Source: Eledone cirrhosa (lineage: Eukaryota). From it: 64,000 nucleotides of DNA. A model generated the notes under the pieces. It ran no database searches, was not told the origin of the DNA, and saw nothing but the letters and a program-made list of their open reading frames with translations. Below are positions 5,319 through 53,270 of this stretch, one piece after another (position 1 is the stretch's first letter; each line of letters opens with the position of its first letter). The position numbers and the translations under genes were made by a program. The stretch is taken from positions 42,408,001 through 42,472,000 of the forward strand of contig OZ024746.1 in the NCBI GenBank assembly GCA_964016885.1. The letters are read 5' to 3'.

Positions 5319-7287
5319 AGGCCAACCTGGAGAAGAAAGATCTGGAAGCTGAAAGACCCCTCAACCAGTAACAGATTTAAAGATATTTTACTCAACGCCT
5401 ATGACAGTAAAGAAGAACAGATATAGACATTCAATGTAGAAGAGAACTGGGAGTTCCTAAAAAATAATTTACTAGAGGCGACGGATGAGGTCTGTGGCTG
5501 GAGTAAGACCTCAAGCAGGAGGAGAGTGACTTGGTGGTGGAACAATAAGGTAGATGAGGCAGTTAAGGCCAAGAGACAGGCATGGAAAGAATGGAAGAAC
5601 GGGGGGAGCAGGGTACATTACATAGAGACCAAGAGGGAAGCTAGGCGACAAGTATACTTAGCTAGGAGGGAAGCAGAGGATAGAAAATTCAAGCATGTTT
5701 TGCAACGTGAGGACCAGAAACAGGTGTTCAAGATTGCGAGGCAGTGTGTCAGAGACAGTTTTGATGTCATTGGAGAGAAGTGTATCCGGAATGATAAAGG
5801 TGAGCTTGCCCTCACAAGTGCTGAGAAGAAAGATGCATGGAAGAGTCATTATGATAGATTACTAAATGAGGAGAATGCATGGGAAGAAGAGACCCTATCC
5901 CAAGTAGACCCTATAGAGGAGCCAGCAGTACAAGTCAGCAGCAACGTAGTAAGTAAGGCAATCAAAGATATGAAGATGGGGAAGGCAACCGGTCCATCAA
6001 GTATAGCTGCCGAGATGCTGAAGACATCTGGGTCTGTAGGTCACACTATAACCACACGTATTATTAACCAGGTAATACTAGAAGGTGTCATACCAAAAGA
6101 TTGGTGCAGTAGCATCATTGTCAACTGCTACAAAAGTAAAGGTGATGCACTAGATAGAGGAAACTATAGAGGTATAAAGCTGATGGATCAGGTCATGAAA
6201 GTAACAGAAAGAGTTATAGCACAGTTGATTAGGGACAGGGTGAAACTAGACGAGATGCAATTTGGGTTTGTACCAGGAAGAGGCACCACTGATGCCCTCT
6301 TCCTTGTGAGGCAGTTACAGGAAAAGTACCTAGCCAAAAGTAAGCCACTCTACCTGGCATTTGTCGACCTTGAGAAAGCCTTTGACAGAGTTCCACGTGC
6401 TGTAATCTGGTGGGCTCTTAGAAAACTAGGAGTAGATGAATGGCTTGTGAAAGCGGTACAAGCCATGTATAGGGGAGCAGTCAGCAAAGTTAGGATTAGC
6501 AATGAGTATAGCGAGGAATTTAGCGTACAGGTTGGGGTCCACCAGGGCTCTGTTCTTAGCCCCTCCTGTTCATCATAGTCCTGCAGGCAATAACGGAGGA
6601 GTTTAAGACCGGATGCCCATGGGAACTCCTGTATGCTGATGACCTCGCACTGATAGCTGAATCTATGGTAGAACTAGAGAATAAATTCCAAACTTGGAAG
6701 CAGGGACTAGAAACAAAGGGTCTCAAAGTCAACATGACAAAGACTAAGGTCCTTGTAAGTAGACGAGAAAACAGAACCCAGATCCCCTCAGGGAAATGGC
6801 CTTGCTCAGTATGGAGGAAAGGTGTAGGTAGGAACTCCATTCTCTGCCCCAAATGCAAACAATGGGTACACAAGAGATGTAGCGGGATCTCAGGAAGCTT
6901 AATTAAGAATGTAGGCTTCACATGCAGCAGCTGTGCTGGGACAGCAAGCAGCAAACAGCCACAGGAAACAAGTACCACCAATCTCTGGGAGGGCTCTGTA
7001 GAAATAGTAGACAGCTTCTGCTACCTAGGTGACTGAATTAGCAGCGGAGGTGGGTGTTCAGAAAGTACAATAACTAGGGTAAGAACGGGATGGAAGAAGT
7101 TTAGGGAACTACAACCACTGCTAGCTGCAAAAGGCTTCTCCCTCAGAATGAAATCAAGCTGTAGAAATCAAGCCAAATCAGTTCCTGTATGAGCAAGGCA
7201 TGGTCAGCCGACCAGACACTGCCCACAACATGACAACCCATCTAACCCATGCTAGCGTGGAAGAACGGACGTAAAACGGTGATGATG

Positions 7288-7290
<3 letters not shown>
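5319..7290 (+). mobile_element. 5'-truncated RTE-clade LINE (RT plus internal Cys-rich PHD-like finger), frameshifted
   Basis: ORF 5526-6578 has KGDALDRGNYRGIKL, QFGFVPGRGTTDA, AFVDLEKAFDRVPR and GVHQGSVLSP. The next frame has ELLYADDL, then WPCSV..NSILCPKCKQWVHKRCSG. It ends in a (GAT)n tail and sits inside (TA)n. Confidence 0.95.
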
Positions 7291-7322
<32 letters not shown>

Positions 7323-7391
7323 ATATATATATACTTATATATATACATGTGTATATAAATACATATGTATATTATATATACATATATATAT

Positions 7392-7490
<99 letters not shown>

Positions 7491-7794
7491 TGAATGCAAA
7501 GACCATAGGAGATTAAAAGTATAAAAGTAAAGAAGGAAGTATAATATATGTTTGAATTCTGAATAGTTGATTAAAATAACATCTTTTAATATGATAATCA
7601 TATATTTCATCTCTAGTACAGAGCAATCTATTTACATTGCACAGAATAGTTATTATATTAGTATGAGCAATGTATATTTTACATCAGATAATATTACTCT
7701 TTACAACCAATTTTGGGGCAGGTAGTAACAGTACATGATAGCTTCCTCATGTAATATCTTGCTTTTCTGATTTGAAAATATTGATTTGTCTTAC

Positions 7795-7895
7795 ATAGGC
7801 AGCTTGTCTCTTTCAGAAGTATTTCTAAATCAAAATCAGTCTGCCTATTTGGAGACCTGTCTCTTTGTTTAAACTGTAATCCTTTATTCATGGTT
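7795..7895 (-). CDS. Coding exon of host gene (acceptor secure, donor ambiguous; may extend to about 7698)
   Basis: cattgtAG acceptor with phase 2 start matching the 8671 exon. Translates TMNKGLQFKQRDRSPNRQTDFDLEILLKETSCL. A GTAAGA donor lies at 7794 (phase 1), but the frame stays open (CKTNQYFQIRKARYYMRKLSCTVTTCPKIGCKE) to a GTAATA donor at 7697 (phase 2). Confidence 0.65.
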
Positions 7896-8670
7896 CTACA
7901 ATGATTAGTCAACTTTATGATGATCATAATTCTGAACAGACAACATACCCAAGCAATGTTATAAAAATAAAACAATAATGAATCTCTAGAAATAGATTAA
8001 TTCAGTGCTATGGTTCTAGAGCCAGTGCAAACATAGTTGGTATTTGTTAGCAGAAGCAGAAACACTTCTGTCTACATTTATGACAAAAGGATTCTCTATT
8101 AAAATGCAGGTTGTAATAATACCTTTGAAAGGTGTGGTGTAGAACGTACACTTTGGAATCATCAATGAATAAAAGACTTTTGGCAATATCCCTTATTCTG
8201 TGGTATGGTAAATGATGAGGAAACAACAGACATGTTCAGTATGGAAATATATCAATACTGGGTAATCATTGGAATCAATAGGTTTTCAAAATGTGTAGCA
8301 AAACCTAAGACAGTTTAAAAAGGAACAGACACTATTTGTGCACCAGAATCATTGGTGCAACTAAAAATAAAGAATGTATATCATAGATTGCTTAAATGGT
8401 TTGTTGAGATAACACCTAAGCTGTATTATTTCTTTTAGAATAATCTAAATAGTTTGGTTATCATAATTAACGATAGTGGTAATAAAACAATATTATAGTT
8501 TTTTTGTTTTTTTTTAATGTAAATTATTTGGAATAATTTCAACAAAAGTTAAAAAGCAAAATTTAATTTTTCAGAAACATTATATAAATAAGAATAAATT
8601 TATATATTAAAATATTGTTTAATTTTGTCTTAACTAACAAATTACTGGTGGCATGAGTCATACATCTCAC

Positions 8671-10193: not shown

Positions 10194-11478
10194 CTTAAAG
10201 AAAGAAAATCAATTGTGTTATAGGTGATAAAACCAAAATATAAGTACTTATCAGGTAACTAGGAAAAGAAAGATATTTTCAGATTAATCTTTTGGTTTTA
10301 TCATTAGAAATAATTTGTAATTTAACTATTTTAAGTCTAGTTAAATATTAAATAGAAAAATGGATATATTTTTATCATTTTTCAAATTAATAAGCTCATG
10401 TTTGGAATAATTTCAACAAAAGTCAATAAAGGAAGTATACTTTCCTAGAAGCATTTTATGAGTAAGTATAAATTTCTTTTTATTTAACTAACACTTCTTA
10501 ATATGACTGTGTGGTTCAGAAGTTGGCTTTGTAAACATATGTTTCAGGTTCAGTACATCTTTTTTTAAATCTTGTTATCTTCAAACCTTTAATGACCAAA
10601 TTTCTTATAAAATATGATTTTCTAATAATTTAGCAAATAATGAAGAACTTGGAGTGATTTACTAATAATATAAGTAACTCTCTTGTTATTAAACTATTGT
10701 CTGGAACATAACTTAACAAAGGATCTTACATAAAATTATGATGTAAGGTTTTTTAGATAAATATGAATATTTTAGAATGTTTTAGAATATAAATATTCTA
10801 AAACAAACAGCTTTGTATCATAGAACAAGGGAAAGTCTCAGGCAGTTTAGTATCAAAAGGATTAAACTAAAGGCAAAATGAGAAGTGTAACAGTTAAATG
10901 TTTTTCTTTTTATTATATCAACAAAACCATCTCTAAATGTAAATAATATAGATATAATTATAAGCCAAATAATCTGGCAAGAAAATAGAATATAAGAACT
11001 TAATTAATGGGAACATCATGAATATGAGGTTAAAAGTCTGCTTTAAGTAAAAGCGTTCTTTAAAATGAACACTTGCAGTTCAAATCTAAAACATCTTTGA
11101 AGTAACACTTCATGAGAACACAACAAAAGAATGGCTAAATATGAATTACAAACATATTTGACCTTTAGTCTATAAATGTATGCTCATGTCAGTATACAGT
11201 GATATTGCATTTCTTGTTTCTTAATATACAAAGCTAGCATTGTTTTATTTTCAATAATATTACACATTCTTTTTTTTAAATATAGAGAGATGAGTAAGAG
11301 TTGGTTTCTGTAATAGAACAAAAATATTAAATTGCTTCACTTACACTTGCTGTAGAAATGTGTATAGTTGAAAATTCCCCCCACTCTCTCTCTCTATATA
11401 TATGTTAGGTAATTCCGAAGGAAAAAAGTTCTATGTATAGAACAGAACTATTTAATTAGAAAGTGAACAACACAAAAT

Positions 11479-11560
11479 ATAACTACTCCATTACCAAAGG
11501 TTTCTGGATCCCAGACAATATTGATAAACATCTGGATCAGTCATCAGACAGAGATGTTAT
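11479..11560 (-). ncRNA. Type I hammerhead ribozyme (left palindrome arm)
   Basis: Reverse complement: AUAAC AU CUCUGU-CUGAUGA-C-UGAUCCAGAU..GUCUGGGAUCCA-GAAA-CC UUU GG-UA-AUGGAG UA GUUAU. It has the conserved core and three stems. Confidence 0.75.
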
Positions 11561-12151
11561 GGATCAAAAATATGAAATGAGATTTAAAATCTGTTAAAAG
11601 TTGGAAGTGAGGCTGGAAAATAACGGGAAATATACATAAGAAAAAATATATAAAAGAAGGGTAAGAAAAATAATATATAAAAATATATAGCAATATATAA
11701 AAAGACATATATACATATACAGACATAAATATATATACAGACATATACTTACACACACATATATTATGTATATATACACATACATGTATATATATATATA
11801 TATATCCTAAGGCTGCAAGCTCATAAGTAAAAAAATAGTATAACAAATACACATGCAAATACATATATATATACACATGGCATAGATAAAAAGTGTATAA
11901 ACACACTAGTCTGCAAACATAGACATATGCAAATACACACATATATATATACATGCAAACATATACATGCATATACACACATACAGAGATATACATACAC
12001 ACACACAAATTTGTGTGTGTGTATGTATATGTGTGTATATGTTCATGTGTATATATATATATATATATATGCGTAGATATATATATATGTGTGTGTATTT
12101 GCGTATGTATATGTTTGCAGACTAGTGTGTTTATATGCTTTTGTGTATGCC

Positions 12152-12193
<42 letters not shown>

Positions 12194-12567
12194 TTGCATG
12201 TGTATTTATTATACTATTTTTTTACTTATGAGCTCACAGCCTTAGCGTATATATACATGTATATATAATATGTGTGTGTATATGTATATGTGTGTGTGTG
12301 TATGTATATGCCTGTATATGTATTTATGTGGTTGTGTGTGTGTGTGTGTGTATGTGTATGTCCGTGTACATGTATGTTTGTGTATATATATATTTTACTT
12401 ATGTCTGTATATGTATATATGTCTTTTTATATATTGCTATATATTTTTATCTATTATTTTTCATACCCTTCTTTTATATATTTTTTCTTATGTATATTTC
12501 CTGTTATTTTTCCAGCCTCACTTCCAATTTTTAACAGATTTTAAATCTCATTTCATATTTTTTATCC

Positions 12568-12649
12568 ATAACATCTCTGTCTGATGACTGATCCAGACGT
12601 TTATCAATATTGTCTGGGATCCAGAAACCTTTGGTAATGGAGTAGTTAT
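12568..12649 (+). ncRNA. Type I hammerhead ribozyme (right palindrome arm)
   Basis: CTGATGA at 12581-12587, GAAA at 12624-12627 and GTA cleavage triplet at 12634-12636. Stem I is CUCUGU/AUGGAG plus AUAAC/GUUAU. Stem II is CCAGAC/GUCUGG with flanking pairs. Stem III is ACC-UUU-GGU. Confidence 0.75.
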
Positions 12650-12694
12650 ATTTTGTGTTGTTCACTTTCTAATTAAATATATATATATATATAT

Positions 12695-13100
12695 ATAAAT
12701 TAATAAAGTAATGAATAAACAAAGAAACAGTTCCTTATATTAAAAAAATTCTTCATTTTACGATCGTTTCTAGGATATATATGTGTTAGTGTTGGTATGC
12801 ATATTCTATAGATCTATGTAAAATATTTATACAAACTATCAGAGGGAATATACATACCTACACATATATATGCTGTCTTCAGAAATAATGATATTTGTTT
12901 ATTGAAAAAAACAAAGATTTAATACAATAGGTCTGTTTGGGAACAGGTTTTGAATTGACCAATAGAAAGATAGTGAAGGTCAAGATAGTAATCTAGTAGT
13001 AAAAGAACCTTAATATATATCCTAGAAACGATCGTAAAATGATGAATTTTTTTAATATAAGGAACTGTTTCTTTGTTTATTCATTACTTTATTAATTTAT
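12695..13100. repeat. Inverted repeat with arms of about 87 bp (12695-12781 and 13014-13100), carrying a hammerhead 3' half GAAACGATCGTA
   Basis: The arms are reverse complements with about one mismatch. The element is bounded by (TA)n at about 12680 and 13240. Confidence 0.8.
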
Positions 13101-13315
13101 CTTGACTCTGTTTTCCGTTAATTTTCACCGAAAATAGTTTTTGAATGCATCTCCTCTTTTCATGATATCCCGATTACATTCAGTTCTTCATACGGATTGG
13201 ACACTACCGTAAATTTTTGGTAGATTTATCTACATACTATATATATATATATATATATATAATCTTCATCATCATTTTACATCTGCTTTTCCCTGCTTGC
13301 ATTATATATATATAT

Positions 13316-13500
13316 AATTGTTTCTACTTTAGGCACAAGGCCAGCAATTACCCAGTGCATTACTGGTACTTTATTTTATCGACCCCGTAAGGATGAAAGG
13401 CAAAGTCAACCTCGGCGGGATTTGAACTCAGATCATAAAGGGACGTAACTATGCTGGAAAGCATGGCGTCCGACCCTCTACTGATACTGCCAATCCACCG
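13316..13500 (-). mobile_element. SINE family A (about 185 bp, tRNA-related head)
   Basis: Reverse complement of the family consensus GGATTGGCAGTATCGGTAGAGGGTCGGACGCC...GAGTTCAAATCC...GCCTTTCATCCTTACGGGGTCGATAAAATAAAGTACCAG...GTAGAAACAATT. Confidence 0.9.
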
Positions 13501-15349
13501 TCCATTATATATATATAATGATAATCAATGTTGGTTAATCCAAGCAATCAACCAATAATGGTGTGATCAGGTAGAAACACTCAACGTCATGGAAGCCATA
13601 AGTTATTATGTATATGGTATCAGACGGAATATCAATATTAAAAAAAGGAAGAGAGATGGAATAACATATTCAACATCAGCTTATTTCATTAAACACACAC
13701 ATACACACACACACACACAGTATCTGTATTAATGGAATCCCCCCCCCCCCCCCCCCCCCCCACACACATTAACTTCATAAGCTACCTGTTGTGTTGAATG
13801 AAGAACTGGAACAAGAGCATAGCAGAAACACTGAGGTATGTGAAAGCTATATCAAATAATATATAATGAGCAACATTAAATTTTAATTGTGGTGCTAATG
13901 GTTTCATCTAGAAGAATGTTTTGCTAAAGCATATTTCTTGGAAAGAGAAAGGCTAAGTGAAACCTAGGAAGAAATGATCTAGGCAAGACATGAATAATTC
14001 TTTTGGTTTTTGAATCTTTAAATGTTATACTAGAAATTCACTTGAAAATATATTGCAAGACTTTACTAATAATGTTTATGTAAGTTATATGAAGGTTACA
14101 ATCAGATATTGATTGCTATTGGAAATAGATAGTTGAGGGGCTAACATCAGCTGAAGTGATTAGATAGCTAGTTTGATTTTTAAATGGTCATTAGAGTAGG
14201 AGAACATTAGTGTGGGGGTTGGGGAGGACTTCACTTAAATATCTTCTGTATCGGTTAAGATGCTTATCATATGATGAAGTTAAAGTATATGCTATAGGCT
14301 GAAAGTTTAGCTAGTATATTTTCATGTCAGACAAACTGAATATTTTGCTACTGTCAGATTGATAATTCTATTTTGGATAAAAAAAATTTCAGATCAAGCA
14401 GCGTGCAAAATGTATAGAATAGAAGAATAGGATCAGAAAATAGAGGAGCGAAAATGTTAAGGAAATGTTAAATTCTTAGGGGGTCTAGCATATCTTTACA
14501 GATCTGAGGTAACGTTTTTAGGGAAAGAAAGATTATATAATCTGATAGAGATAAAAGCAAAAAATGCAGTATATCACTTCAGAATGTTGGTTTGAATGCC
14601 AAGGGAACCAATAGTGCAGAAACCAGTAGCACAGAAGCATACAATTATAATTGATTTCTCAAAATGATATATGTATTAAATAATCTAAGAAGCAGTTATT
14701 TTTTCATATCTGAAAAAATATTCTTTTATAGTTAAATAGATTTGCTTTCCTTCAAGGCTTTTACTTTTCATGCTAGAGCTAACAAATTTGGAAAAACAAT
14801 TAAGTAGTTTTACATTTTTTTTAGATTGAATGAAAACAAAAAAATATGAATGATAACTTTAGTAATTAAGAAGTTTTAAACCCTTTTAACACCAATATTT
14901 TGATTACATATTAGAGGTATAAGTTTTGTAACGTCTCTATTAAGTTCAAAAGCAGTCTTTAAATAAAGCAAATACAAAATATGTAAGTTATTTATACTGA
15001 GAAATATTATTAGTGTTAAGAGTTGTTGTTTTTAACTTCATGAAAATTATTGAGAAAACTCTACAGCCGGTTAAATACAATGCAACTTATTTAATCAAAA
15101 TTAAACATAAGTAGTTAAAAAGGAAAAGGGTAAGGGAAGGTAGTAATAACACCTCACTAATTTTTGACTCAATTTCAATATGAGAGAAAAGATCGGATTA
15201 TTGGACTGTAAAAGTCAACAGATGTTTGAATTAATCATGTTATAGTTTCCTAGAGACCACCAGAGAGTAGTGATTTATACAATGTTAACCATAGACAAAT
15301 AATCTCACAAAAACAACTGCGTAAACAGCAATAACACTAACCATGTTAA

Positions 15350-18300
15350 GGCTGTGCATGGTAGTGGGGTGGCTAGTGTGGCCATGTGTGAGAACCCCTT
15401 GACCGTTATCAAGCAACCGCACAACAGGAAAAAGAACGGGATGTCGCATCTCAGAGTTCCCACACTTAATGTTGGCGCTCTAAAAGGTAGATCTGGTGAG
15501 ATTGCAGAGATGCTGGAGAGAAAGCATGTAGATGTGTGCTGTGTGCAAGAGGTGCGATGGAGAGGTGCCTCTGAAAGACTAATCGCAGCCAAAAATCATA
15601 GTTATAAGCTTTTCTGGGTGGGTAATGATGATGAGTTAGGTGGGGTGGGCATATTACTGGCTGAGAGATGGATCAATAAGACGATAGAGGTAGTTAGAGT
15701 TAGTGATAGAATAATTAAGCTTAGGTGAGTTGTAGGCAAGAGACTACTGACAATCATCTCTGCCTATGCTCCTCAGGCAAGTAAAGAAGACAAAGACGGC
15801 TTTTATGAGCAACTTTTACAGACAGCCTCAATGACAGAGGACAGAGACATCGTTATGCTAGCAGGGGACTTCAATGGACATGTTGGACAGCTCGAGGATG
15901 GATACACTGGGGTACATGGTCGGCACATTACGGCTCAAGAAATGAAGAAGGAGTGAGGCTTCTTGAATTTTGTGATGCAAATGCACTAACCATTTGCAAC
16001 ACTAACTTCCAGAAGCCTACCAGCCACTTAATAACCTACAAATCAGGCGAGCACATAAGCCAGATTGACTTCCTGGTAGTTAGACAGCGAGACAGACGGA
16101 TGGTGTCAAATACTAAGGCTTACCCTGGGGAAGAATGTTCCCCACACATAGGTTAGTCGTTAGTGACATCTCAGTAAGCAAGAGAAAGCATACAGGAAAG
16201 TGTGGAAAAGAAAGGTCTGGAACCTAAAAGACCTTTCATTAAAATATAAATTTAGCAAAGCCCTTCAAGATGCGTACAACGATTAAGACGATTTAGAGTT
16301 ATATGACATAGATGATAACTGGAATTTCTTGCGTGACAACTTACTGCAGGCTACTGAAGAACCTTGTGGTTGGGACAGAGCTTCCACCAGACAGAGAGTG
16401 ACCTGGTGGTGGAACAGCACAGTAGATAGGGCCATTAGAGACAAAAGACTGGCATGGAAAGCTAGGAAAAATGGTGGGAGTAGCGACGGATACACAGCCG
16501 CTAAGAGAGAAGCTAGACGTCAGGTGTACTTAGCACGCAGAGAGGCTGAGAGTAGGAGGTTTGCCAATGTTCTGCGACGGGAAGATCAGAGACGCGCGGT
16601 GCCCCGCATTGCAAGGCAGTGTGTCAGTGCAAATCAGGATGTTGTTGGAGATAAGTGTGTCCTGAATGATGCCGGTGTACATAGTGTCACGAATGATCAA
16701 AAGAAGGAGGCCTGGAAATGTCATTATGAGAGACTGATGAATGTAGAGAACGAATGGGACAGAGAGGAATTTCCTCAGTAGACCTGACAGAGGGACCAGC
16801 TATTAAGATTGACGAATATAGGGTACAAGAGGCAATTAAGGAAATGAAGAATGGTAAGGCTGCTGGACCATCGGGGATAGTTGCTGAGATGCTGAAGGCT
16901 TCAGGAGAAGTAGACACTAAACTAGTTGCACGCATCATTAATCAAGCTATATATGGTGGTGTCATACCCAAAGACTGGTGCAGCAGTATTCTCATAAATT
17001 GTTACAAAGGTAAAGGGGATGCTCTGGAGAGGAGCAATTATAGGGGCATAAAGCTGATGGATCAGGTTATGAAAGTGGCAGAGAGAATATTAGAGCAACT
17101 GATTAGAGAAAGGGTCAAACTAGATGAGATGCAGTTTGGTTTTGTACCTCGGAAAAGTACAACAGATGCCCTCTTCATAGTGAGGTAACTACAAGAGAGG
17201 TTCTTAGAGAAGAATAGCTACTATATTTAGCTTTTGTTGACCTAGAGAAGACTTTTGATAGGGTATCTCGATCTGTCATCTGGTGGTCCCTAAGGAAACT
17301 AGGGGTAGAGGTATGGCTTATGAGGACAGTTCAAGCTATGTAGGGTGCTGTCAGCAAAGTGAGAATAGGAATGAAGTTTAGTGAGGAATTCCAGATACAA
17401 GTAGGTGTACATCAAGGTTCTGTCCTCAGCCCACTCTTGTTCAGTATAGTCATCCAAGCCAGAACAGAGGAGTTTAAGACTGGCTGCCCATGGGAACTTC
17501 TTTATGCTGATGATCTGGTTCTTATAGCAGAATCAGTAAAAGAGCTAGAGAATAAATTCTGGCTATGGAAACAGCAGTTGGAATCAAGAGGCCTGAGAGT
17601 GAACATAGCTAAAACAAAGGCGTTGATAAGTAGAAGAGAGGAAAATACTCTGATTCCATAAAATGTACACAATGCAGATCTTGGCTACACAAAAGGTGTA
17701 GTGGGAGGGTAGGCAAACTAACAGGTAGGGAAAACTATGTATGCAGTAGATGTACAGGGAAAGTTGGCATTTTTCCAATGCAGGTGGGTTCTATAGAAGT
17801 GGTTGATAGCTTTCGGTACCTAGGTGATCAGATTAGCATGGGAGGGGGTGTTCCAAGGCCATAGTATCTAGAATAAGGATGGGTTGGAAGAAGTTTAGGG
17901 AGCTGCTCCCTCTGTTGACAAAGTAGGGTTTCTCCCTGCGTACGAAAGGATGGTTATATGATGCCTGTGTAAGATGCACGATGCTGCATGGTAGTGAGAT
18001 ATGCGCGATGCTGCATGGCAGAAGATATGCGACTGCTGGAGAGAAATGAAGCTTGTATGCTCCGTTGGATGTGCAATGTCAATGTGCATGAACAACCAAG
18101 CATAGATGAGTTGAGAAAGAAACTGGGTATAAGAGGGATAAGTTGTGGTGTGCAGGAGAGAAGGCTGAGATGGTATGGACATGTGATGCGCATGGAGGAC
18201 GACCAATGGGTGAAGAAGTGCCAGGAAGTCCCAGTGGAGAGAAGATGCAGTAGAGGTAGATCACGAAAAACATGGGTGGAGGTGGTGAGAGCAGACCTCA

Positions 18301-18431
18301 GATCGCTGAAACTCACGGAGGAGATGACGAAGGACCGTGATGGGTGGAGAGATGCCATGCTGAATAGGACCCGTCCAACCCTTGCAAGCAAGGAAAAACG
18401 GACGTAAAATAATGATGATGATGATGATGAT
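15350..18431 (+). mobile_element. Near full-length RTE-clade LINE pseudogene (APE endonuclease plus RT) with stops and frameshifts
   Basis: APE motifs: TLNVG..CCVQEVRWRG, SAYAPQ, AGDFNGHVG, SQIDF. RT motifs: NYRGIKLMD, QFGFVP, GVHQGSVLSP, LLYADDL. C-terminus RLRWYGHVMR..RGRSRKTW, then a (GAT)n tail. Confidence 0.95.
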
Positions 18432-19331
18432 AGGGTGCCAAGTTACAGATAAAGTTCCCCCACATGGAAAGTTGAACTTTAAATTGCAAAGTTTATGTTT
18501 TGACCAATTATCAAATGTTATAACAACTAAAACATTTTAATGAATCGATTTTGAAATGTTGTTAATAATATGAAAAGTAATTGTAAGAAAACTAACAGCA
18601 TTATCATCATCTTGCAGCCTCTGCTAAAATAGTTCTCCATGTAGGGCTGTCATTCATTGCATTGCCTAGGTCCTACACATCAATACCAGTGCCTGTGGCT
18701 CTGACATCTGGATAGAAGAGTGGGACTACTGTGGTTTATGACAGTTGTTGATTTCCAAGGAACTAAAGTAGACACAGCTTCATTTTTGGTGTGATTTGGT
18801 ACCTGAAATCTCACCATCGTCTTTCACACAATATCAGAAATACAGCTGCTCTTGTTGGACTCCATCTCAATAAAAGCAAGAAGTAGTACATGTCAGATTC
18901 ATCTGCTCGATTCACCCTCAAAGCACAAGATGGAAGTGAAATTTAAAGATCTAACTATTTTAAGTACCTTAGTTCTTGACTCAAGGACCCTGGAAAGGAT
19001 TTCAACACCAAAAATGTCCAGGCATAGTCAGCATGGAATAAGCTTGACAGCATCTGGAACGCCAATCATCCAAATTCATCTAAAGTTACAATACAACCAA
19101 TTTACTTTAGGGTAGTGAAACCTGGACACTTAATATCAAACAACAAAAGTGCCTTAATTGAGCATATACATCCTTGCTTTATCAAACTCAAAGCATAAGA
19201 TAGAGGCAACATAATAGACTTAGAGGAATATACAATGGTCTCTCTAGTATTTCTGATATCATAATAATCTAAATTTACATTACCTCTTTCAGGAATCTGG
19301 AAAAAAAGATGAGAAAGGAAAAATAACCTAC

Positions 19332-19620
19332 CTACAGTAACTCTTTAAGATATTCTGAAATGTTTGTTTCACTTCACTGTGTATATAAGAACTCCGCAAA
19401 AAATATTGATTGTCATCAGGATGGTCAATATCTACATATTCTGGGACCAAGAACACATCAGTAATACTAGCTTTCACTTGAAGCCCCGATTCCCTTTTCC
19501 AAATGAAATCCATGGCTTGCTGATTATTAGTCACATACATTGTGGTCTCAAGTTCCTTGATACTATTTAAACGCTCCACAAATACATTTCCTGATGGCAT
19601 CAGCTGTAAGCTGTTATTAT
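19332..19620 (-). CDS. Coding exon of host gene
   Basis: ttcctctttccAG acceptor and AG/GTAGGT donor. 289 nt, phase 1 to 2: DNNSLQLMPSGNVFVERLNSIKELETTMYV...QTFQNILKSYCR. Confidence 0.88.
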
Positions 19621-51959: not shown

Positions 51960-53270
51960 ACACCAGCAATAAGGAACCATGCAAATTTTGCAGATATGAC
52001 TGGTCTTCAGCTATTCTTCTCCTCATCCCATCCTCATATCTCTGCATCTTGGACTTATGGACCAGCAATATCTATCTTTTCCTGTCTCTTGCCATTGCTG
52101 TATATTCTGCCAAACTCCTTCCTGTCCATTCCTTAATATCATCTAACCATCTCCTTTTCTCCCAACCCCTGGCCCTTGTTTTCCCTGTATTGGTCCCTCA
52201 GGGATGTGGGTAGTCAAATTTTGAGCCCTGATGACATGACCAAAATACTGAAGTTTCCTTTTCCTTACTGTTTCAACCAACTGTCGATTGACCCCTATCT
52301 CTTCCAAGACAGATTCATTTGTTCTGTGAGCTCTCCTGCTAATTCTAAGTGCATGCCTATAGCATGACATTTCAAATGCATTTAGTTGTTTCAAGTCAGA
52401 TGCTTTTAAAGTCCATATCTCACAACCATATACAGCTACTGGCCACACTATTGTTTTGATTACTTTCTTTTTGGTGGACTTTGTAAGAGCTCTATCCTTC
52501 CAAAGGATGCTGAGTGTGCTCAAGACTGTTCTTGCAGTTGCTAGTCTTGCCATTATTTCTCAACTTCCCCCTATCACCGTGTGTCATTTCTTCCTTCTGT
52601 CTAGTTGCTGCCATTACTTTTGTCTTTTTGATGTTGACCTGACTATATTCCCTTGAAATTCTCTAAACTTTATCCAGTAGTGTTTGTAGATTTGCTGGTG
52701 AGTTTGCTATGAGTAAACTATGTCGTCAGCATACCGCAGGTTGTTGATCTCTTTCCCACCAACAGTAACCCCGATCCAGGAGAGCATATCTGCTGACTTT
52801 CCCATCACCTCCTCAGAGTAAAGATTGAATGCCAAAGGTGACACCAGGCATACCTGTTGAACTCCTCTGTTTAGACTGAAGCATTCTGTGAACTCTTTTT
52901 CCATGCTCACTGCAGCTAATTGCTCATCATACAGAAGCTTTAATAATTTCACCATTGTGCCATTCACTCCCTTCCTCTTCAATACGTTCCAAAGCATTGA
53001 ATGTAATACAGAGTCAAATGCCTTTTTATAACCTACAAATGCTAAATAAAAAGGCACATTAAACTCCCTTGCTTTTTCCATGATAATTCTGATATTGAAA
53101 ATCTGATCCCTGGTCCTCACCTTCCTTTCTGAAACCCATTTGTTTGTCTGCACACTGTTCTTCTACCATTCTCTGCATTCTCTCTAAGAGAATCTGCAGG
53201 AGGATAATGAAAGCGATTGTATGGTGTTCTGTACATTTTGTTGTTCCAGTGATCTTTGGTATGGGAATAA
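51960..53270 (-). mobile_element. RTE LINE fragment of a second family (RT and C-terminus)
   Basis: TRDQIFNIRIIMEKAREFN, AFVGYKKAFDSV, GVQQVCLVSP, INNLRYADDI, VAVYGCEIWTL, RKLQYFGHVIR. Confidence 0.9.

Follow-up and report, generated by a model that had tools for sequence, protein, structure and literature searches.

The palindrome at 11449-12679 of the window (the whole stretch of 64,000 nt analysed here, positions 42,408,001 to 42,472,000 of Eledone cirrhosa contig OZ024746.1) is a real feature, and the kind of element and the kind of insertion it represents are both known. It very probably consists of two head-to-head, 5'-truncated pLTRs of a Hydra-type Penelope-like retrotransposon, likely placed in a (TA)n tract by one insertion event, with the hammerheads carried along as passengers and, by prediction, blocked in the host pre-mRNA. 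It belongs to a known insertion type and is not a new RNA device, and the single locus, one among more than 1,500 copies, is ordinary. The features of the locus, with the means by which each was recognised, are the following (window coordinates).

10196..19330, minus strand: host intron, 9.1 kb, of an EGF/TNFR-Cys-domain gene (protein match, tblastn, GT/AG ends)
11395..11402: TA repeat at the left junction, target remnant (sequence)
11403..11448, minus strand: the pLTR's 3' tail, present on the left arm alone, 46 nt with an internal deletion, against about 62 nt in the family (match to L118, L121, L124)
11449..12009, minus strand: left arm, 5'-truncated pLTR, host-sense (inverted-repeat search, arm alignment)
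11479..11560, minus strand: type I hammerhead motif of the left arm, C3 at 11547, predicted cut between 11492 and 11491 (alignment, descriptor)
11613..11632, minus strand: polypyrimidine tract and CAG, acceptor-like, left copy, AG at 11614-11613 (motif common to two other families)
11989..12030: spacer-less head-to-head junction, a 21-bp perfect mirror around AAA and TTT at 12009/12010 (arm alignment)
12010..12679, plus strand: right arm, a tailless 5'-truncated pLTR lying antisense to the host gene (inverted-repeat search, arm alignment)
12010..12495, plus strand: microsatellite-rich pLTR body, TA/TG repeats and family-shared unique blocks, possibly a retained intron (family alignment)
12496..12515, plus strand: polypyrimidine tract and CAG, acceptor-like, right copy, AG at 12514-12515 (motif common to other families)
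12568..12649, plus strand: type I hammerhead motif of the right arm, C3 at 12581, predicted cut after 12636 (alignment, descriptor)
12680..12697: TA repeat at the right junction, target remnant (sequence)
12697..13236: another head-to-head insertion, distinct from the palindrome, by a second and younger Penelope-like family within the same TA tract (repeat and descriptor search)

The outer inverted arms (11449-11620 and 12508-12679) are 98% complementary and the next block (11617-11731 and 12396-12510) 97%, and the inner arm blocks match at 72-90% only. Global alignment of the arms placed the centre between AAA and TTT at 12009/12010, with 21 bases mirrored perfectly and the spacer absent. The arms are unequal in length, 561 nt on the left and 670 nt on the right, a difference of 109 nt that is due to microsatellite changes. 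The alignment bears out the spacer-less palindrome with a hammerhead in each arm that the initial annotation had placed at 11449-12680, but the element itself runs 46 nt beyond the left limit given there, through the tail at 11403-11448. No real ORF overlaps the palindrome, in agreement with the earlier statement that it holds no protein ORF. A TSD was sought at both junctions, and none was readable within the TA repeats.

Each arm contains the core CUGANGA, GAAA and NUH together with three helices, the features of a type I hammerhead. The two 82-nt copies with stems I, II and III, together with the extra C after A9 in both motifs, were found as first described, and the lone C/T difference between the copies gives a wobble that keeps the pairing. 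The initial annotation had proposed a descriptor search and an Rfam scan as checks, and they disagreed: the descriptor gave three matches in the window, where 100 doublet-block shuffles averaged 0.02, whereas Rfam returned no hammerhead match even at E<=10, only sub-threshold miRNA matches driven by the microsatellite. In 578,693 fetched bases, from loci preselected for such repeats, the descriptor found 110 matches against 0 in one shuffle. The hammerhead folds have energies of -16.2 and -13.7 kcal/mol and lie 3.8 and 5.9 above the MFE (-20.0 and -19.6), so energy alone lends no support; with z about -1 for the arm hammerheads, folding energy was dropped as ribozyme evidence.

The family alignment comprised 54 copies (13 of 67 were omitted as near-duplicate or truncated loci, and the window arms were entered by their window coordinates). 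The hammerhead core is nearly invariant among them, and 94.8% of stem cells pair. Variants shared by at least nine copies lie outside the stems or affect N7, the extra base after A9, the last helix II pair (GU/GC/AU), loop II and the bulge, a placement that would fit selection on master elements, though the copies were picked by similarity. Absence of stem covariation among copies had been named beforehand as evidence against the ribozymes, and it was found in part: there are no compensatory pair changes in 53 distinct copies of this family (hereafter the focal family), with a covariation score equal to that of shuffles, but the stems appear to covary between families. About 15 other hammerhead families keep pairing with different stem sequences, a count that is circular in that the descriptor itself demands pairing. 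Just upstream of helix I, TCCAT (12566-12570) could pair with ATGGA (12637-12641, past the cut) in a possible competing fold; TCTAT stands in its place in 21 of the 54 copies.

As described by Cervera and De la Pena (2014, PMC4209133), PLE minimal hammerheads combine low activity with a long helix II and an extra base after A9. The focal motif resembles these metazoan hammerheads in its type I topology, long helix II, extra base after A9 and small, near-palindromic helix III, but differs in its two bulges within helix II and in having no G10.1-C11.1 pair beside the core; the helix II base next to the core is non-canonical, U-A in the window copies and C.A in 44 of 54 family copies. In the anole Poseidon element PAc, the hammerhead is reported to cleave only with the protein and to be dispensable for insertion in vitro (Frangieh et al., 2024, PMC11167929). 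In an active element of the focal family, the hammerhead may act as a weak, dimer- or protein-assisted processor of tandem transcripts.

The position inside a host intron, already proposed in the initial annotation, is supported by the flanking exons at 19621-19331 and 10195-10016 on the minus strand, which code for successive stretches (residues 276-372 and 372-431) of an Octopus protein, and by the GT and AG that bound the intron around the palindrome. The ORF at 19331-19600 (minus strand) is 92% identical to an uncharacterised EGF/TNFR-Cys protein of Octopus sinensis, and tblastn recovered nine exons at 47560-1545 (minus strand), covering residues 22-494 of 1,639 of an uncharacterised mollusc EGF/TNFR-Cys protein. 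Host introns of the window also contain broken LINE-type RT/endonuclease ORFs at 5427-7036, 15303-18407 and 52143-53162, which we take to be RTE. The MFE structure of the host-sense sequence 11350-12730 has 530 long-range pairs and engages 82 of 82 bases of the left hammerhead. As the intron is transcribed, the antisense arm would come first, and a hairpin of about 530 bp is then predicted to zip up and leave the ribozyme unfolded. The arm hammerhead is likely shut off through pairing with the opposite arm, and with all of its bases tied up in the predicted structure, no cleavage of the host pre-mRNA would be expected.

The genome contains 1,543 exact matches to a 20-nt ribozyme core pattern (0 for the reversed control), and a DNA search gave 1,797 first-look candidates, of which the best of 40 scored 93-97%. 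The family unit runs from an ORF (RT, GIY-YIG) through a 3'UTR, a microsatellite-rich region, the hammerhead, a tail of about 62 nt and a leader to the next ORF; walking 5' through the microsatellite leads to the 3'UTR, then to the end of the GIY-YIG ORF, and then to the RT. Linkage was examined in ten 10-kb regions that had been selected by the length of their ORF matches. The pLTR, hammerhead and tail stand directly upstream of the leader and ORF start in three of them (L118, L121, L124), an ORF is followed by a same-strand hammerhead in four (L117, L119, L120, L125), and an inverted pLTR arrangement surrounds the ORF in L119 and L122. Within the family, pLTRs are found on both sides of the ORF, direct or inverted, as expected of Penelope-like EN+ elements. 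The window arms align to ORF-linked pLTRs over most of their length at 74-81%, microsatellite included. The RT and GIY-YIG ORF is continuous with the repeat in other family copies, and none is present at the window locus. The genome-wide search for copies and linked RT/GIY-YIG ORFs that had been suggested yielded both, in the 1,543 core matches and in ORF-adjoining pLTRs of the fetched regions. The Penelope-like, inverted-pLTR half of the original interpretation stands, since the arm sequence is the pLTR of an RT/GIY-YIG element; for the same reason its retrozyme or dedicated non-autonomous half falls, the locus being a truncated insertion.

All ORF copies of the focal family seen are broken. 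The motifs RWK, DKT, YRDD, CxCx5C, CxxC and CxH each occur in some of these broken copies, and all occur together in an intact 714-aa ORF of a sister family, whose EN lacks CCHH; the broken ORFs are mostly 55-76% identical to it (range 48-78%). They agree with how the Hydra clade is defined by Craig et al. (2021, PMC8557442, section 11), and the focal family has in common with that clade the C-terminal GIY-YIG, RWK, DKT, the CxCx5C linker, CxxC, CxH and the missing CCHH, besides a hammerhead and a (TA)n target. Motifs and by-eye comparison point to the Hydra clade, and an assignment to Neptune was dropped, since the linker is CxCx5C and the EN is without CCHH. The clade as described includes Hydra-1_Obim from Octopus bimaculoides, which appears related to the focal family but distinct from it, as protein and hammerhead stems differ by eye. 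Helix III is ACCA-A-TGGT in Hydra-1_Obim and ACC-TTT-GGT here; that element is listed at 2,507 bp with "no pLTR", whereas pLTRs are plainly present in the focal family, microsatellite-rich and at least about 1 kb long; and the focal tail of about 62 nt compares with a published 30-40 nt (PMC8557442). The focal family is probably an undescribed member of the Hydra clade, to judge from sequence comparison; no description of it, of a one-tail count or of a long-helix hammerhead was found in the papers that the literature searches brought up, and Repbase/Dfam or an O. vulgaris library may hold the family.

The search for an intact focal-family ORF gave none: the five closest of 150 scored matches (from 25,515 candidates) are open for only 144-304 aa, and the unscored candidates may still hide such a frame. 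Many intact 714-aa frames belong to the sister family, at 73-75% identity to the focal family, and the arrays at C1:52.9 Mb and C1:157.5 Mb contain no focal-family ORF. Among 8,000 scored database candidates, 1,521 relatives were found at E<=1e-50, almost all unnamed. Pfam named neither RT nor GIY-YIG in the intact 714-aa ORF and gave RVT_1 at no better than E=0.06, on an ORF fragment. Two near-full sister copies with an intact 714-aa ORF lie head-to-head at L147:2946-5087 (minus strand) and 6178-8109 (plus strand), and the sister 3' region there contains a pair of hammerhead-like motifs separated by about 1.5 kb, of which the first has a GUG triplet. A first look across the genome gave 10,596 GIY-YIG candidates and 25,515 for the focal RT fragment, which are not copy numbers; the genome carries a very large Penelope-like load. 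Three loci (L033, L034 and L036, C1:211-213 Mb) form a recent segmental duplication, 95-99% over 5-9 kb, so the family copies there are not independent insertions.

Copies of the family end at two sites, either directly after ...TAATTAAATA or about 62 nt further on, past the tail, and then pass into TA/AC repeats. The tail matches the sequence that follows the 5' pLTR and continues into the ORF leader in L118, L121 and L124. Among 64 copies with a readable end, 32 are tailed, 26 run into microsatellite and six into other sequence, a count that includes 10 loci preselected for the tail and one "other" end carrying a deleted tail. When the tail was extended by pattern, all of 10 copies ended in microsatellite. 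A (TA)n target is indicated by the TA at both window junctions and by the 26 of 32 untailed ends that pass straight into microsatellite, and contig loose ends in public sequencing runs coincide with both end sites (11449 and 11395). Exactly one tail is present in 14 of 15 distinct head-to-head pairs and two tails in the other (binomial p=0.0005); among pairs not selected for the tail the figure is 8 of 9 (p=0.02), and L003, L027 and L029, outside the 15-pair count, also show one tail each. A one-sided tail is a known Penelope signature. In L117, L118, L119, L125 and L067, one or two extra tail copies without a hammerhead follow right after the 3'UTR, about 1 kb or more upstream of the hammerhead-linked tail, and mark a possible second priming site.

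The largely microsatellite body described in the initial annotation was confirmed as TA/TG-rich, and it belongs to the family pLTR and is not a local accident. In the intact sister family, the microsatellite-rich pLTR likewise ends in a pyrimidine tract, CAG and CCTCACTT, soon before a different hammerhead, and a third family also has the pyrimidine tract, CAG and CCTCACTT motif. A body shared across families and ending at an acceptor-like motif suggests a retained intron, as in D. virilis Penelope, where an intron end near the ribozyme is described (PMC4209133). A conserved splice donor was sought in the microsatellite-rich pLTRs and none was identified.

The neighbouring insertion brings a third hammerhead motif to the window, at 12748-12892 on the minus strand, with C3 at 12882, a predicted cut after 12759 and 105 nt between the core halves, a distance at which common descriptors would miss it. 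Its long hairpin has z=-3.9, its helix III is perfectly palindromic, and 16 descriptor matches were found in the fetched loci. This second family has 1,618 first-look candidates, is 97-99% identical between copies, and in L130 continues into an ORF. Some 15 other hammerhead families occupy the same TA tracts, many in short palindromes (L008, L013, L021, L022, L024, L027, L030, L033, L070, L075, L081), and several of these families have 60-100 nt between core halves. To the right of both palindromes, 13320-13505 is a short repeat present in many loci, presumably an octopus SINE.

According to the published accounts, PLE insertions frequently include an inverted 5'-truncated copy, a one-sided tail and a preference for (TA)n (PMC8557442), and the anole PAc protein cuts and extends both strands, with reverse transcription starting at two sites that bound the tail (PMC11167929). 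The focal family resembles PAc in its two discrete 3' ends bounding the tail, AT-rich targets and a tail stem-loop, but PAc belongs to a different clade and its hammerhead overlaps the start codon, which in the focal family lies about 270 nt downstream (PMC11167929). Among the first 100 core matches listed, 11 minus-then-plus pairs within 230 nt and 0 plus-then-minus pairs were counted by eye. The core-to-core distance of the window pair, about 1.1 kb, is long for the family and compares with 100-700 bp for the opposite-strand hammerhead pairs of PMC4209133. Compared with 66 other copies, each window arm is closest to the other (1.9% versus a median of 6-8%). Arms are strictly mutual nearest in only 2 of the 11 pairs, with the partner nearest for at least one arm in 5, which makes "one template" a tendency. 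Another set of 15 pairs, overlapping in part with that of the tail count, has a longer untailed arm in six, a longer tailed arm in three, about four symmetric pairs and two unclear ones. Along the lines of the anole Penelope element in vitro, the element endonuclease would cut both strands of the TA tract, reverse transcription would start from each target strand, at two sites bounding the tail, and both cDNAs would stop in the self-complementary microsatellite and then join at AAATTT. Such double priming, with one cDNA per start site, would give outward-pointing arms, one tail and a greater length on either side.

It is also conceivable, though rather doubtful, that a cDNA begun at the tail end snaps back in the microsatellite and is copied, the copy being trimmed just before the tail. 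Self-priming has been proposed as the origin of Penelope palindromes (PMC3846280), and the spacer-less window junction, the near symmetry of about 4 of 15 other pairs and the private variants that paired arms have in common would suit it; however, in 6 of 15 pairs the 5' reach of the untailed arm exceeds that of its tailed partner by 15-260 nt, an outcome that simple fold-back of a tailed first strand cannot yield and that would take one more deletion in every such case. A dedicated non-autonomous retrozyme or mini-PLE moving as a palindromic unit is largely refuted and very improbable. The locus has no ORF, most copies are short, and the focal tail is 82% like that of the intact sister family, so mobilisation in trans is conceivable; yet the 5' ends are scattered over reference positions 238-954, pair spans range from 83 to 2,217 nt, and no second copy of the window palindrome was seen. 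The focal family is similar to non-LTR retrozymes in its non-coding stretch and its type I hammerheads, and these are related to pLTRs, but retrozymes are described as head-to-tail tandem units with one-strand ribozymes (bioRxiv 10.64898/2026.07.22.740005) and the window holds an inverted pair. Neither head-to-tail arrays (one short same-strand core pair, within 100 nt, among the first 100 matches listed) nor a family without coding capacity was found, the pLTR being continuous with the ORF in other copies. A MITE or foldback DNA transposon was rejected, as arm lengths are not fixed and the arms are pLTRs.

Palindromes within microsatellite are hard to assemble, but the palindrome is almost certainly not a fold-back assembly artefact. 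The arm differences, cited in the initial annotation against an artefact, proved a sound argument, with substitutions showing opposite CpG decay, the 109-nt length gap and the tail on one side only; the palindromic structure also recurs genome-wide, and the contigs of one public sample, possibly the assembled one, cross without change from the unique flank into the tail by 22 bases, which is below the 31-base bridging rule. Co-option by the host, with the hairpin or ribozyme as an intronic switch regulating the gene, appears most unlikely. The left hammerhead and the acceptor-like AG do stand host-sense within the intron, and the long hairpin would suit ADAR, of which long hairpin RNA is a substrate, but the window copy is indistinguishable from about 1,500 others and the arm divergence looks neutral.

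The arms differ at 7 of 283 positions in the outer part (two CpG-type), 9 of 92 in the middle and 7 of 69 in the inner part. The outer arms are 2.5% apart and the inner ones about 10%, roughly fourfold more, for which there is no explanation beyond microsatellite turnover; CpG decay is independent in each arm. The earlier description of the element as young holds loosely for the outer arms (7 of 283) but not for the inner blocks (about 10%) or the broken ORFs of the family. With 1.25% per arm and a rate borrowed from the calibration given for O. vulgaris, where a JC distance of 0.065 corresponds to 18 My (PMC13282606), the insertion would be very roughly 3-4 My old.

The family as a whole offers a large natural data set on the origin of Penelope inverted repeats and one-sided tails, in which counts of the one-tail rule and of arm lengths across the genome can distinguish double priming from fold-back. 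A wider scenario is put forward tentatively: octopus Hydra-type Penelope elements may carry a TA/TG-microsatellite retained intron in their terminal repeat, so that microsatellite would be both their target and something they spread; their one-tailed head-to-head insertions, in the thousands, may record priming of reverse transcription on both strands of the target, from two start sites, and would seed long hairpins in host introns. Should the microsatellite body be a retained intron, the elements would help to account for how much microsatellite octopus genomes carry. Octopuses are known for heavy RNA editing, and such palindromes would be a large source of intronic double-stranded RNA in these animals.
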